DNA from: Alphaproteobacteria bacterium
Lineage (GTDB): Bacteria > Pseudomonadota > Alphaproteobacteria > ATCC43930 > CGMCC-115725
Length of the DNA: 38,159 nt
Assembly (NCBI GenBank): GCA_019244535.1
Contig: JAFASL010000782.1
Location: 1-38,159 of the forward strand
Reading direction: 5' to 3'
Part shown: piece after piece, positions 2,353 through 13,476 of the stretch
Layout: each line of letters starts with the position of its first letter
Numbering within the stretch: the stretch's first letter is position 1
Notes under the pieces: generated by a model
Told to the model about the DNA's origin: nothing
Seen by the model: only the letters and a program-made list of their open reading frames with translations
Database searches by the model: none
Made by a program: the position numbers and the translations under genes

Positions 2353-4514
2353 GCGCGCGCCGACAAAAACGCGTCACAACCTCCGGCAATCGCCGCAGCG
2401 CGACACGTCCGGCCGAGCCGGCAATGCTGGCCGCAATTCGCTGCGTCGATGAACTGCTGGCAAACGGCGTCGCGAGATGGCACGCCGTGCAAGGCGCCGA
2501 CCCGTTTCGCGGGCTGCATATCGGCCCTGAGGAAGTCGAGCGCTGGCTTGGCGCGGCGGATGCCGAGCCCGAGCCGATTTCCGCCGGGCTGACCAGCGTG
2601 ATGACCCGTGCCGTGAACGCAGCGTTGGACGACTCGGTATTCCGCTGGCTGGTCGGCGAGTTTGCATTGACCGCCTTCCAGGCGGCTGCGCTGGTCATCG
2701 CCTTTGCACCCGAGCTCGATCTTCGCTACGAGCGGCTGTTCGCCTATCTGCAGGATGATGTCGGCAAGCGGCGGCCGACCGTCGACCTGCTGCTGCGACT
2801 ACTGTGCCCCGACCGCACCCGCCGGGCTCTATGGCTCGGCGAATTCGGCTCCGGCGCGCCACTCGTCCAAAACCGGCTGATCACGGTAGCCCGCAACCCG
2901 GAGGCACCACTCCTTTCCGCGCCGGTACAGCTCGACTACCAGATCGCCGCGGTCTTGTTGCGTCACGGCCAGCTCGACAGCCGGCTGGTCGGGTTCTGCA
3001 AAGTCTCGGCTGCAACCAGAGACTTCGGCGGACTGCCGATCGCGCCGGAATGGCACAAGGCATTGCCGGCATTGTTGGCGTCCGCACGCGAGGAGCGGCG
3101 ACCGTTGCGCTTCTACCTGCAGGGGCCCTCCGGCGTCGGCAAAGGACACCTCGCCGACGCGATCGCCGCCCGCCTCGGCGCGCGGCTCGTCACCGCCGAT
3201 CTTGGGGCGTTGCGACAGCTGAGCGACATCGGCGAGCGGCTGCGGCTGACCTTCCGCGAGGTGTGGCTGAAGGGAGGCGTCCTTTATTTGACGGGTGTTG
3301 ACGGGCTGCGCGAGGACGGGGCGCAGTTCTCGGCCTTGCTGGGCCTAATATCGGCTGATCCCGGGGTGACCGTGCTGTCTGGGCACAGCACCTGGAGTGC
3401 CGCCGAACTCGACGCTACCGGAATCATCCCGCTCGCCTTCGACGTGACCGCGCCGGGTGTCCAGCGGGCGAGCTGGACCCGGGCCTTGGACAATGCGGGC
3501 ATCACGGTTCCCGAAGACGAGCTGGCGGTGCTCGCAGAACGCTTTCGCCTCACTCCAGCCCAGGCTGGCGAGGCTGCGCTCGCGGCGGTCAACCGTGCCC
3601 GCTGGCGCGAGGCCGTTTCGGGCGGCGGCGACACTCGGCCGACCCTTGAAGACTTCTTCCTCGCCGCCCGCCTGCAGGGTGGTCAGGAACTGGCGACTTT
3701 GGCCCGCCGGATCGAGCCAAAGCGCAGCTGGTCGGACATCGTCCTGCCGCAGGAATCGTTCGATCAGTTGCGCGAGATCTGCGCGCGCATCGCCAGTCAT
3801 CGCCAGGTTCTGCGCGACTGGGGCTTTGCCCGCCGGCTCAGTCTCGGCAAGGGGGTCACCGCGCTCTTTTCCGGCCCTTCCGGCACCGGCAAAACATTGG
3901 CAGCTGAGATCATTGCGTACGAGCTCGGTCTTTTTCTTTACAAGATCGACCTGGCCACCGTCGTCAGTAAATATATCGGCGAGACCGAAAAGAACCTCGA
4001 TCGGCTGTTCACCGCCGCGCAGGACGCCAATTGCGTTCTGTTTTTCGACGAGGCGGACGCGCTGTTCGGCAAGCGGTCCGAAGTACGCGATTCTCACGAC
4101 CGCTACGCCAATCTCGAAATCTCCTACCTGCTGCAGAAGATGGAGGAATTCGAGGGGCTGGCGATCCTCGCAACCAATCTGCGCCAGAACCTCGACGACG
4201 CCTTCACCCGCCGTCTGGCCTTCACGGTCCACTTCCCGTTTCCGGACGAGCACGAGCGGCACCGCATCTGGTCGGAGATCTGGCCCAGCGAACTGCCGGT
4301 GGCCCCCGATGTCGACGCCCTCGGACTCGCGCGCGAGCTCAAGATGAGCGGCGGCAACATCAAGAATACCGCGCTTGCGGCGGCCTATTACGCTGCCGCC
4401 GATGGCGGAGTAGTGACGCGGGCGCACCTGCTGCGCGCGGCGCGGCGCGAGTTCCAGAAAATGGGCAAGGTGCCGAGCACCCTCGAGACCGCCATCATCG
4501 AGGGAAATTCGTGA
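2349..4514 (+). CDS. Tandem AAA+ ATPase, eCIS Afp15/Pvc15-like
   Basis: The C-terminal AAA module has Walker A GPSGTGKTLAAE, Walker B VLFFDEADALF, and ATNLRQNLDDAFTRRLAFTVHFPFPDEHERHRIW. An upstream degenerate module reads LQGPSGVGKGHLADAIA. The start is either GTG 2349 (GTGA overlap) or ATG 2424. Position and architecture match the ATPase found in eCIS loci. Confidence 0.9.
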   Translation: MSARRQKRVTTSGNRRSATRPAEPAMLAAIRCVDELLANGVARWHAVQGADPFRGLHIGPEEVERWLGAADAEPEPISAGLTSVMTRAVNAALDDSVFRWLVGEFALTAFQAAALVIAFAPELDLRYERLFAYLQDDVGKRRPTVDLLLRLLCPDRTRRALWLGEFGSGAPLVQNRLITVARNPEAPLLSAPVQLDYQIAAVLLRHGQLDSRLVGFCKVSAATRDFGGLPIAPEWHKALPALLASAREERRPLRFYLQGPSGVGKGHLADAIAARLGARLVTADLGALRQLSDIGERLRLTFREVWLKGGVLYLTGVDGLREDGAQFSALLGLISADPGVTVLSGHSTWSAAELDATGIIPLAFDVTAPGVQRASWTRALDNAGITVPEDELAVLAERFRLTPAQAGEAALAAVNRARWREAVSGGGDTRPTLEDFFLAARLQGGQELATLARRIEPKRSWSDIVLPQESFDQLREICARIASHRQVLRDWGFARRLSLGKGVTALFSGPSGTGKTLAAEIIAYELGLFLYKIDLATVVSKYIGETEKNLDRLFTAAQDANCVLFFDEADALFGKRSEVRDSHDRYANLEISYLLQKMEEFEGLAILATNLRQNLDDAFTRRLAFTVHFPFPDEHERHRIWSEIWPSELPVAPDVDALGLARELKMSGGNIKNTALAAAYYAAADGGVVTRAHLLRAARREFQKMGKVPSTLETAIIEGNS

Positions 4515-12200: not shown

Positions 12201-13476
12201 CGCGCAGTCGAACGTCGTCGGCGAGCCGCCAAGGGACGCGCCGCCGGCAACCAAGGCGGCGAAGCAAACCAGCAAGACCATCGCCGCGGATAGCGACAAG
12301 GTTCCCACCACACCCGATGCAGCGACCGAGCCTGGTGCCGAATACGCAACGCCACCGCATCCGGCAGCCCGCAAAGCGGCCGCAGTCTCTAGCGACGCAG
12401 GAGCGAAGGCGGCCAAGCAGAGCGCGAAAGCCGCGGTTCCCGAGCATGCGCAGCCGATCATCCGTGATCCCGGCGGAGCCCCGTCGAAAACGGCGCCAAA
12501 GCCGGCACGGCCGCCCTCCTCCCGCGGCGAAAAGCTAACGGGCGGCCTTGCCAAGACCGATGCGGTGCTGGGCGCGGTGCGCGACTATCAGCAGTACAAG
12601 GCCGATGGCGCCAGCGACGCGTCGGCTCTGGCGCGCTCCGGAACGACGCTTGCCGCCAATCTCAAAGGCGGGCCTGCCGCCGCCATCGTCAACGCCGCCA
12701 ATGCCTACGACAATGCCCGGCGCTCCGGCCAGGGCAAGCTCGAGGCGACCGCGACGGCGATCGGCACCGCAGGCGGCGGCGTCATCGCCAGCAAGGTTGC
12801 GCCGGCCGGTCCAGTTGGCACGGCGGTCAACCTCGCCAATACTGCGGCGCAGGCATTGGGCGCCCCCCAAGGCGTGCAGGACGCCACCACGGGAGCGGCG
12901 GCGCTGGTGCCGTCCAACATCGTCGCCACTACCGTAACCGAGGGCGCGCGCAGCTATGCCAATCTCGGCACTGCGTTGGTGACCGGCGACACCAAGGCGC
13001 TCGACAAGCAGGTGCAGGGCTTCCAAGCCGGCAGCGCCGGGCCGTGGCTGCAAGGTTATGCGCAGGTGACCGGCATGGTCGCGGATATGGCGGCCGGCGA
13101 CAATTTCGAGACCGCGCTCAACAAAGCGGCGGCGAGCGGCAAAGGGTCTTGGGCCGACCGCGTCGGCAGCAAGGGCGGCGACGCGCTATACGAACTCGGC
13201 CAGTCCAAAGAAGCGAAATCAGGCAAGTACGGTGCCTCGGTCCAAGGCATCTCGATGGCGCTCGGCATCACCTCGGACATGATCGCCGGCCAGAGCTTTG
13301 AGCAAGCCCTCAACAAGGCTGCGAAAGCAGGCGAAGGCTCGTGGCCGGAGAAGGTCGGCAATGCGCTCGGCGACGCCGCTTGGGACGCGACCGAAAAAAC
13401 GCGGCAGCTGGTCAACGAGGGTCTGCCCGCCGCCAAACAGGCCATCAAAGACAAGTGGAACAAGCTGTGGAGCTAA
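9202..13476 (+). CDS. Second giant (about 1424 aa) effector-like protein: GNQT leader motif, no DUF4157, a paralogous coiled-coil plus HAE/C-x3-C cassette, Pro/Ala-rich spacer, and a Gly/Ala-rich C-terminal region with a 64-aa tandem repeat
   Basis: ATG 9202 overlaps the preceding stop (TGATG, TGA 9200-9202). The cassette is homologous to the first giant protein (VAW, HAE at 11734-11742, VEVVGD, VCERVCQPAL at 11839-11853, VDGYTYH, PIYR). High GC3. Confidence 0.8.
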   Translation: MGRRHGQIVNAPGGQKTTQKHPSPPLVKRDKTASFASAAGNQTTNAVLASAAPQPRSTPPNQAPLGTANAVLPKEDFARVLQPGPEYWLGHSPDITAMPASRLKDEANQIDEWISRQTATTPDVLRLEEVGGQLHSEIARREKRAGAETKKTTRGPRKAAGKPAAPTRDSGRVAVPRALREHSSIATTEPAVLEREYDEIMAYLQRQNVVPEDRKLLQIELANLEPALTQHLTRRSAERHIQVINRALTPDPSVGDDPARLLEAVRRVDSIRPIIGKPGYNYLMHGHEMIVVPDAVADDIRANTLKALDQMASQVADANEEIEADYREFVDRTFEKHQYVGFISMTRSGENPLDWEQTLIPGVGASNQQRGQFRELRRASKDPWRTDRAGFFPMAEKLAAAERISGATRSYLEYKTGLVLAGTAGAVGDLGGLKAAGQVAANIAFTPAGAALYGAGESALEQTSEIAYGQRESYDVKGIAFDAAAGYVGAKVTGGVLSLPGKSAPLWLRGAAFVAADRAGAVATTGTRMGLDRVSGRSGAPASDIARAMANEAVDWKQTLVDFAMVGAGHVARSGAKAPAQPAAKAEARSASPRRSASDNPDFSDVTRELGLEPPTPRTPGEPGPRDPNDPHWDDYQKVLAKRGFENAPGVSQHADLQRQLGEIRRNREPNTQRQNERLDVLRRDVARRQKEIKPLETEVTRLRRQAKSKSTTPAAQAKRAEAQRKLAELEPKLQNARNQRKAVEKFITQTKNRSPAAAHERVRQKLALSRTEDFEPLNRPLKSRGADAGSFQDTHAVVKVVDSKTKRVVAWSIETFNAEEQVPKPENKLQAKKAREAGTDKQKHAEQKSLPNIEYQLRRRGIKSLKGYSVEVVGDREVCERVCQPALQEFAGKKGWDADAVDGYTYHGTTARGRPLSEKKTAVKRSTDLAEGMTVTKQRLPIYRRPEGGPPPTAPSQLTPTAPHRAPIPQKDQDEEHPARGVPRAADDTRAAKPLPQASAQSNVVGEPPRDAPPATKAAKQTSKTIAADSDKVPTTPDAATEPGAEYATPPHPAARKAAAVSSDAGAKAAKQSAKAAVPEHAQPIIRDPGGAPSKTAPKPARPPSSRGEKLTGGLAKTDAVLGAVRDYQQYKADGASDASALARSGTTLAANLKGGPAAAIVNAANAYDNARRSGQGKLEATATAIGTAGGGVIASKVAPAGPVGTAVNLANTAAQALGAPQGVQDATTGAAALVPSNIVATTVTEGARSYANLGTALVTGDTKALDKQVQGFQAGSAGPWLQGYAQVTGMVADMAAGDNFETALNKAAASGKGSWADRVGSKGGDALYELGQSKEAKSGKYGASVQGISMALGITSDMIAGQSFEQALNKAAKAGEGSWPEKVGNALGDAAWDATEKTRQLVNEGLPAAKQAIKDKWNKLWS
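13072..13380 (+). repeat. In-frame tandem duplication (period 192 nt / 64 aa) inside the C-terminus of the second giant protein
   Basis: GMVADMAAGDNFETALNKAAASGKGSWADRVGSKGGDA (from 13072) compared with GITSDMIAGQSFEQALNKAAKAGEGSWPEKVGNALGDA (from 13264). Confidence 0.8.

Follow-up and report, generated by a model that had tools for sequence, protein, structure and literature searches.

Why does a contractile injection system (CIS) locus place two very large genes between its ATPase and its cap, and why does no immunity gene accompany them? The question is raised by a contig of 38,159 nucleotides (nt) from an alphaproteobacterial assembly (JAFASL010000782.1 in GCA_019244535.1; the window hereafter), a CIS locus of 65% G+C in which the two genes, here called P1 and P2, directly follow the ATPase gene. 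P1 carries the domain DUF4157. Proteins with this domain are the most common predicted CIS cargo, and their loading, most of their functions and their frequent lack of immunity genes are still puzzling. We conclude that P1 and P2 are probably cargo effectors of the surrounding CIS, coupled to the ATPase, modular in build and bearing a deaminase-fold payload. An earlier note on this DNA had proposed an effector or cargo role, and DUF4157, the location beside the ATPase gene and an enzymatic module that is conserved all fit that proposal.

Two overlapping genes and their domains

P1 and P2 are genuine coding genes, since full-length homologues exist for both (at 46-59% identity for P1 and 78% for P2) and the order ATPase-P1-P2-cap-sheath is found again on independent metagenomic contigs. 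P1 orthologues range in length from 1468 to 1635 amino acids (aa). The TGA stop of the ATPase gene (4512-4514) overlaps the P1 ATG at 4514 by one shared base (TGATG), and the TGA of P1 (9200-9202) overlaps the P2 ATG (9202-9204) in the same manner, the single shared base being 9202. Alternative GTG or TTG starts for P2 lie at most 15 nt upstream of ATG 9202. The cap gene starts at GTG 13527, 50 nt past the P2 stop. The coordinates and lengths of both proteins, the TGATG overlaps and the 50-nt gap given in the earlier note proved exact. Modules were mapped by BLAST of 131 fetched homologues onto P1 and P2; the homologue sets are small and the word-index searches incomplete. The features of this interval are as follows.

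2349..4514, + strand: AAA+ ATPase (Afp15/Pvc15/Alg15-like), presumed cargo-loading factor; Pfam AAA E 1.8e-33, WHD (winged-helix) E 2.1e-28
4514..9202, + strand: P1 gene; 1562 aa, 164 kDa, pI 9.5
4514..4714, + strand: P1 N-terminal region, residues 1-67; low complexity, LQRxAGNxAV motif (AGN 4658-4666); candidate loading sequence
4721..4954, + strand: DUF4157/eCIS_core (PF13699), residues 70-147; E 1.4e-29, HELAH 4919-4933 (residues 136-140)
5096..6289, + strand: P1 helical extension and deaminase-like domain, residues 195-592; HAE 5975-5983, VCSEIC 6077-6094
6290..6976, + strand: P1 basic Pro/Ala/Lys/Arg/Thr-rich linker, residues 593-821; net charge +39, sequence and length not conserved
6977..9199, + strand: P1 C-terminal domain, residues 822-1562 (741 aa); about 14 long beta strands interrupted by helical inserts, followed by an entirely helical half; ends ...QWDAVNAQWKVW
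9202..13476, + strand: P2 gene; 1424 aa, 151 kDa, pI 9.6, without DUF4157
9202..9390, + strand: P2 N-terminal region, residues 1-63; basic, AAGNQTTNAV motif (AGN 9316-9324)
9391..10911, + strand: P2 N-module, residues 64-570; 36-58% identical to P0036, P0038 and P0123-P0130
11077..12051, + strand: P2 coiled-coil hairpin and deaminase-like domain, residues 626-950; HAE 11734-11742, VCERVC 11836-11853
12052..12441, + strand: P2 Pro/Ala-rich linker, residues 951-1080; predicted local distance difference test (pLDDT) below 50
12442..13473, + strand: P2 C-terminal domain, residues 1081-1424; Gly/Ala-rich, predicted helical, internal repeat, ends ...KDKWNKLWS
13527..14438, + strand: cap/terminator gene (Pvc16_N and CarboxypepD_reg); Pvc16_N E 4e-21; downstream edge of the cargo slot

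The N-terminal DUF4157 that had been claimed for the first protein is the PF13699 match listed above, and in the BLAST map this module covers P1 residues 68-167. The LQRxAGNxAV motif in front of it is kept in P1 orthologues and in many DUF4157 proteins, about 85 aa upstream of HExxH. By likeness to the N-terminal domain of the AlgoCIS cargo (bioRxiv 10.64898/2026.05.27.728243), the P1 N-terminal region may act in loading. There is no PF13699 match in P2. An 'AGN(Q/T/S)(A/T)' motif lies in the first 75 aa of all six DUF4157-less P2-type partner proteins, and the AGN motif also precedes DUF4157 in P1-type proteins (background density 6e-5 per aa). Besides DUF4157 and coiled-coil noise, whole-protein scans of P1 and P2 against Pfam, NCBIfam and PADLOC gave nothing. 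Neither protein contains a hydrophobic segment resembling a signal peptide or transmembrane helix (no 19-mer reaches Kyte-Doolittle 1.3). AT skew is strongly positive (0.26-0.43) in several 1-kb stretches of P1 and P2 (5-7, 8-10 and 11-13 kb), lower between those stretches and near zero in the structural genes, which presumably results from the Lys/Glu/Gln/Ala/Thr-rich, aromatic-poor composition of the two proteins.

The earlier observation that no open reading frame (ORF) of immunity size is present also held. None fits between P1 and P2 or in the gap after P2, and the cognate immunity gene that directly follows classical polymorphic toxins is missing from both. Nested and antisense ORFs in other frames were considered as hidden immunity genes and rejected, as they display only the mirrored GC1/2/3 pattern of the host frame.

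A deaminase-like cassette in both proteins

P1 residues 311-659 align with P2 residues 626-1029 at 27% identity (E 1e-21), which confirms the cassette that the earlier note had described as common to both proteins. What has to be added to that account is the identity of the cassette, a helical hairpin followed by a deaminase-like domain, and this is the key functional clue. In an alignment of 13 core copies (A1), H, A, E, C and C are invariant and are arranged as HAE, about 32 residues and then V-C-x3-C. The corresponding residues are HAE 488-490 and C523/C527 in P1 and HAE 845-847 and C880/C884 in P2, so that both proteins contain the motif of the cytidine deaminase (CDA) superfamily, H[AC]E ... 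(P)C-x(2-4)-C. Among 1.84 billion representative proteins, a profile search returned 216 clusters at E<=1e-3, from which 74 diverse representatives were aligned; only H, E, C and C are invariant among them, with Ala nearly so (at least 90%). About a third (24/74) carry eCIS_core/DUF4157 (E<=1e-3). At the same threshold, the representatives gave 14 matches to five deaminase families (XOO_2897, dCMP_cyt_deam_1, Toxin-deaminase, SNAD4 and Deam_C), the remaining matches being single weak ones (about 3-6e-4) to SOG2, DUF4407 and AAA_33. Scanned singly against Pfam, 11 of the 13 aligned copies matched XOO_2897-deam, three Bd3614-deam and three dCMP_cyt_deam_1, all below threshold. Moreover, the orthologue P0006 bears the JGI name 'pyrimidine deaminase RibD-like'.

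An AlphaFold2 (AF2) model of P2 residues 626-1424 has a pLDDT of about 90 both for an antiparallel coiled-coil hairpin of 40+40 residues and for the core behind it. The predicted core runs b1-b2-helix(HAE)-b3-helix(Cx3C)-b4-helix-b5, which is the order of the cytidine-deaminase fold. Judged from sequence, the cassette core is well supported as a divergent clade of the deaminase superfamily outside current Pfam models. It resembles the polymorphic-toxin deaminases of that superfamily (XOO_2897-like, Bd3614-like, BURPS668_1122 and DddA/SCP1.201-like) in its HxE...C...C motif, in its predicted beta-beta-alpha-beta-alpha-beta core and in being fused to secretion-system trafficking domains. It differs from them in its sub-threshold matches, its Cx3C spacing, the conserved helical hairpin that precedes it and the absence of an adjacent immunity gene; DddA, for example, has the immunity partner DddI. 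The window holds two subtypes of this deaminase, about 35% identical, of which that of P2 is the divergent one and carries a 23-aa insertion. No DNA-level repeat beyond chance matches was found between the two cassettes, so there has been no recent duplication and there is no substrate for recombination.

No curated deaminase Pfam model reaches its gathering score: the best, XOO_2897-deam, has E 1e-4 to 1e-5 and about 22 bits where 27 are required, although the matches below threshold (also to dCMP_cyt_deam_1, Bd3614-deam, SNAD4 and Toxin-deaminase) are consistent. In Foldseek, which the earlier note had proposed as a check on AF2 models, the 799-residue, multi-domain model of P2 626-1424 gave coiled-coil matches only and no deaminase, the hairpin dominating the matches, and the fold therefore stays a predicted one. 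Against PDB sequences, the A1 profile found no deaminase, and profiles A1, A2, A4 and A8 gave only compositional matches (TolA, ribosomal proteins). The HAE...Cx3C domain might accordingly be read as a zinc-binding structural or regulatory module and not a toxin, with toxicity residing in modules that have no annotation, namely the C-terminal domains and the P2 N-module. In polymorphic toxins the C-terminus is where the toxin normally lies, and many DUF4157 proteins of about 1000 aa share their C-terminus with the last 190 aa of P2. However, none of the 74 representatives departs from the catalytic Glu or the three zinc ligands, and the matched families all belong to the deaminase clan, save eCIS_core and the three weak exceptions named above. 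In addition, the P2 N-module is pre-toxin-like, with variable toxin domains following it elsewhere. We consider a non-toxin zinc module very improbable.

Conserved C-terminal domains and exchanged middle modules

The linker of P1 gave only compositional matches to PDB sequences, namely to TolA domain II, and leads into the C-terminal domain. An AF2 model of this domain from a 14-sequence alignment has a pLDDT of 78 and a predicted TM-score (pTM) of 0.70, and consists of three blocks of long (12-22 residue) beta strands split by helical inserts, followed by a helical half. Gly, Ala, Ser and Thr make up 50% of the strand residues, and the first eight strands are amphipathic. No Pfam, PHROG or PDB sequence match was found for the domain, and Foldseek of the model returned nothing below E 1e-3 in PDB or BFVD. 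Its best, weak matches were the outer-membrane beta-barrels EspP, BrkA, CymA and FecA and a phage-encoded SusC, with TM-scores of at most 0.38. The domain is therefore a confidently predicted fold without a match in either database, at the level of the model. A beta-barrel is suggested by the amphipathic, Gly/Ala/Ser/Thr-rich strands and the weak barrel matches, but with TM-scores no higher than these we keep it as a hypothesis only.

The C-terminal domains could be self-delivery devices, inserting in the membrane of the recipient (or of the producer, if this were a proteobacterial suicide system of the CIS-Sc kind) and carrying the deaminase across, with the basic linker as a tether. In P1 the device would then combine a helical domain with a large sheet or barrel of amphipathic beta strands that has no solved relative, and in P2 it would be a Gly/Ala-rich helical domain. 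We think this unlikely. If true, P1 and P2 would be AB-toxin-like CIS cargo and immunity-independent deaminases of an undescribed clade, a source of base-editor scaffolds.

A homology search with the core profile of the P1 C-terminal domain returned three fragments, and related loci were found with a narrower alignment of it (A6). The relatives carrying this domain are Pseudomonadota. Over about 730 aa it is 31-63% identical in P0001-P0015, 36% in a Pseudomonadota metagenome-assembled genome (MAG; L002) and 27% in Rubrivivax sp. A210 (L004). The proteins that share it carry differing middle modules, and those of L002 and L004 are without the deaminase motif. P1 residues 195-592 are 50% identical to P0011 601-986, and the cassettes of P0011, P0014 and the partner protein of locus L001 are about 50% identical to P1 over their whole length. 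These three proteins have other N-modules than P2, and their deaminase core is 52-70% identical to that of P1 and not P2-like; sister loci hold two copies of the P1 deaminase subtype. The L001 partner also has a different C-terminal domain.

P2 is likewise built from modules that occur elsewhere in other combinations. Its N-module has no Pfam, PDB or PHROG match. Other proteins, of about 1000 aa, have it behind DUF4157 and in front of C-terminal domains that vary; P0129, one of these proteins, ends in Ntox4 (E 1.3e-17), the sole module recognised by Pfam among the variable modules of the homologues. The N-module is therefore pre-toxin-like and not itself a toxin. The P2 C-terminal domain is 78-81% identical in P0011/P0014, and DUF4157 proteins of about 1000 aa have C-termini that match its last 190 aa at 38-51% identity. 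P0038 unites DUF4157, the P2 N-module and a P2-type C-terminus in one protein. The helical prediction for this domain is of low confidence, with a pLDDT of only 50-70. An internal duplication of about 35 aa lies within it at 13090-13390 (residues ~1297-1395; AAGDNFETALNKAAASGKGSWADRVG / IAGQSFEQALNKAAKAGEGSWPEKVG). Both families of C-terminal domain finish in a conserved Trp motif (P1 type ...PDRKQWDAVNAQWKVW, 9150-9199; P2 type ...LPAAKQAIKDKWNKLWS, 13420-13473), and its place at the extreme C-terminus suggests that a free C-terminus matters for function.

P1 and P2 lie between the ATPase and the cap, sheath, tube and baseplate genes, and the same synteny was found in four other loci; the ATPase gene also precedes the P1-type genes of L001-L004. 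What follows P1 varies. L002 and L004 have no second gene, whilst in L003, a Rhodanobacteraceae MAG, the second slot (10957-13269) holds a translationally coupled 770-aa DUF4157 protein instead of P2. Residues 195-356 of that protein are 54% identical to the C-terminal module of P0124, and it also includes a linker rich in Lys, Ala and Pro and a hydrophobic segment at its C-terminal end. All related loci that were examined have one or two DUF4157 proteins in the slot behind the ATPase, contrary to the earlier statement that loci of extracellular CIS (eCIS) normally have nothing there. The earlier likeness to polymorphic toxins stands as far as module swapping is concerned, which is clear, but the layout is inverted. 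In place of the classical variable toxin tip at the C-terminus, the middle of P1-type proteins varies and the C-terminal 741 aa are conserved.

Proposed loading and firing, and competing explanations

How could such proteins work as cargo? The genes of P1 and P2 would be expressed together with that of the AAA+ loading ATPase and coupled to it in translation. Each protein would form a chain of modules: a low-complexity N-terminus with the AGN motif as presumed loading signal, DUF4157 (in P1 only), one or two payloads, a linker without ordered structure and a C-terminal domain that is conserved. Both would carry, as their shared payload, the helical hairpin with its zinc-dependent deaminase-fold domain (HAE...Cx3C). 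By analogy with AlgoCIS, the ATPase would recognise the N-terminal regions and thread the proteins into the tube lumen, contraction would expel them with the tube, and in the recipient cell nucleic acids or nucleotides would be damaged by the deaminase. The C-terminal domains probably help in particle docking or membrane interaction, which is the weakest step of the scheme.

Several characterised systems bear on this scheme. DUF4157 is the signature domain of eCIS-associated toxins (EATs; PMC8213781, PMC11297309) and occurs in the proven lumen cargo Cgo1/Cgo2 (PMC8894135). In AlgoCIS of Algoriphagus machipongonensis, the AAA+ ATPase brings Cgo1 and Cgo2 into the tube lumen; loading needs the orthologous ATPase and a disordered N-terminal domain, and DUF4157 is dispensable (PMC8894135; bioRxiv 10.64898/2026.05.27.728243). 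Compared by description, Cgo1/Cgo2 resemble P1/P2 as two adjacent large CIS genes whose products have a disordered N-terminus, DUF4157 and differing C-terminal parts. However, P2 is without DUF4157, the two proteins of the window have a deaminase cassette in common and conserved domains at their C-termini, and the sheath of the window is only distantly related to that of AlgoCIS (7adz, E 3.9e-31). A partner without DUF4157 has a parallel in Streptomyces lividans, in which the DUF4157-less effector Sle1 is paired with an adjacent DUF4157 protein (PMC13277306), so that Sle1/Sle2 resemble P2 beside P1. EAT11 of Amycolatopsis nigrescens is a predicted DUF4157-deaminase eCIS toxin that is toxic to E. 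coli and yeast (PMC8213781). EATs, with EAT11 compared by description, share with P1 the N-terminal DUF4157, a long linker, an enzymatic toxin and often the lack of an immunity gene; unlike theirs, the deaminase of P1 is mid-protein and not C-terminal, and is followed by the basic linker and the large conserved C-terminal domain. Tme of Streptomyces davawensis is a largely disordered DUF4157 protein of 2247 aa with an enzymatic domain and is the largest ORF of its cluster (PMC11126660). By description, P1 resembles it in giant size and DUF4157. P1 and P2 differ from it in having no predicted transmembrane helices or tape-measure homology, a deaminase and not a nuclease, and a position between ATPase and cap where Tme is upstream of the baseplate genes. 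A membrane-helix model on the pattern of Tme was given up because no transmembrane helices were found in either protein.

The earlier note had judged the two proteins much larger than typical cargo, which turns out to be no objection. A lumen 4 nm wide and 100-120 nm long has room for about 1000 kDa, against 164 and 151 kDa for P1 and P2, and both a 1228-aa lumen cargo (Cgo2; PMC8894135) and the 2247-aa Tme (PMC11126660) are documented; size is therefore no obstacle.

The failed deaminase matches count against the cargo reading, as do three further points. Both proteins are conserved over their full length (46-78% in several loci) and have conserved C-terminal domains, which resembles fixed components more than freely exchanged toxins; a deaminase acting on nucleic acids ought to be a danger to a producer that has no immunity gene; and the nearest solved sheaths belong to cytoplasmic or membrane-bound CIS, so that extracellular injection is not assured. 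Two alternatives draw on the rest of the locus, which comprises sheath, gp19-type tube, CIS_tube+LysM, GPD hub, gpV spike, gp25 and two Baseplate_J genes as well as the following.

892-1647: LuxR-type response regulator, upstream of the ATPase
1861-2352: small gene overlapping the ATPase start; receiver-like stand-alone domain, by eye from ORF translations only
16890-17276: tail assembly chaperone-like ORF, 128 aa; PHROG E 6.7e-5; ends in a CPEC zinc-ribbon-like motif
17207-17407: overlapping 66-aa ORF in another frame, at the position of a DUF6760 gene call in a related contig
17400-18152: 250-aa Arg/Pro-rich ORF without family, in the tape-measure slot before the LysM tube-initiator gene
28772-30646: NHL+Tail_P2_I fibre-like protein (Pfam); further large ORFs also present

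The first alternative is that P1 and/or P2 are structural parts of the lumen, a tape measure or ruler or 'Tme-like' component docked via the C-terminal domains at the baseplate or spike and setting or filling the length of the tube, with any enzymatic module as a passenger. No other ORF of the cluster is as large; among Pseudomonadota loci it is the P1 C-terminal domain that is conserved as the hallmark, the middle being variable; and both C-terminal families end in the Trp motif at a free C-terminus. Moreover, a CIS_tube-like gene immediately follows the P1-like gene of Rubrivivax (L004), a placement shared with tme (PMC11126660), Streptomyces DUF4157 proteins bind spike and tube-initiator proteins (PMC11126660, PMC13277306), and CIS-Sc, the closest characterised lineage, is without a typical Afp14 tape measure (PMC10066040). 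However, the canonical tape-measure slot of the window is already filled by the chaperone gene at 16890-17276 and the 250-aa gene, which weakens the structural alternative raised in the earlier note; 16890-18152 may be a chaperone/frameshift/ruler arrangement. No tape-measure similarity was seen in Pfam, PHROGs, PDB or BFVD, the best tape-measure match being at rank 18 with E 0.29. P1 is not mainly alpha-helical at its centre, where a deaminase is followed by a disordered linker and a beta-rich domain, its linker varies in length between orthologues of 1468 to 1635 aa, and, unlike Tme, it has no predicted transmembrane helices. At the AlgoCIS coefficient of 0.229 nm per residue P1 would span about 360 nm, and P2 is absent or replaced in related loci. 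A ruler role thus appears unlikely.

The second alternative is a cytoplasmic or membrane-anchored CIS like CIS-Sc, which fires in or from the stressed producer with P1 and P2 as self-directed death effectors. The sheath (14456-16414) is nearest to that of S. coelicolor CIS-Sc (8bky/8bl4, E 1.6e-87 and 9.2e-85) and next to that of a haloarchaeal membrane-bound CIS (9ezm, E 2.8e-79), PVC, AFP and AlgoCIS being far less similar (E 1e-31 to 1e-42), so that the system may act in a mode other than the extracellular one. CIS-Sc brings about regulated cell death with cargo that has no immunity genes (PMC10066040), and self-directed firing would explain why none is present here. In the neighbour-attacking haloarchaeal system, DUF4157 toxins have downstream immunity genes (PMC11566945), so their absence at P1/P2 carries information. 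A response-regulator pair also lies upstream. Its smaller member, at 1861-2352, was rejected as an immunity gene, since its translation, judged by eye from the ORFs of the window and L001 with no family search run on it, looks receiver-like and it is kept in L001, where a counterpart (3405-3830) occupies the same place upstream of the ATPase. On the other hand, the locus encodes fibre-like proteins (NHL+Tail_P2_I and more large ORFs), which are absent from CIS-Sc (PMC10066040), and many experimentally toxic eCIS toxins also come without immunity genes (PMC8213781). Sheath similarity does not set the mode of action, and the producer is probably a diderm proteobacterium, in which no cytoplasmic CIS of such type has been described. 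We regard self-directed killing as quite unlikely, and return to P1 and P2 as probable cargo effectors.

Elsewhere in the locus, the two Baseplate_J-family genes stand in tandem (21428-27161); the first is unusually large (1225 aa) and matches the family only at residues 977-1174. G+C dips to 0.55-0.59 at 34000-36000, against about 0.65 elsewhere, around a 449-aa gene (33858-35207). No Pfam or PHROG family was found for that gene or its neighbours at 33006-33815 and 35914-37806.

Giant DUF4157 effectors, a toxin that joins DUF4157 to a deaminase (EAT11) and the puzzling lack of immunity genes are already known, and DUF4157-toxin fusions with very long linkers have been published (PMC8213781, PMC11126660). 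What appears to be new is a deaminase clade with a conserved helical hairpin and Cx3C spacing, a tandem of two deaminase subtypes in one slot, an inverted layout of exchangeable middle module and conserved C-terminal domain, and a confidently predicted fold of that domain without a solved relative. The locus and its relatives form a natural experiment, in which the slot, the N-terminal motif and the C-terminal domains are fixed and the middle enzymatic module is exchanged. The fixed and exchanged parts hint at which regions serve delivery and which toxicity, and at where payloads might be inserted in engineered particles. Lastly, toxin deaminases are already useful as base editors, and new clades are therefore of practical value.

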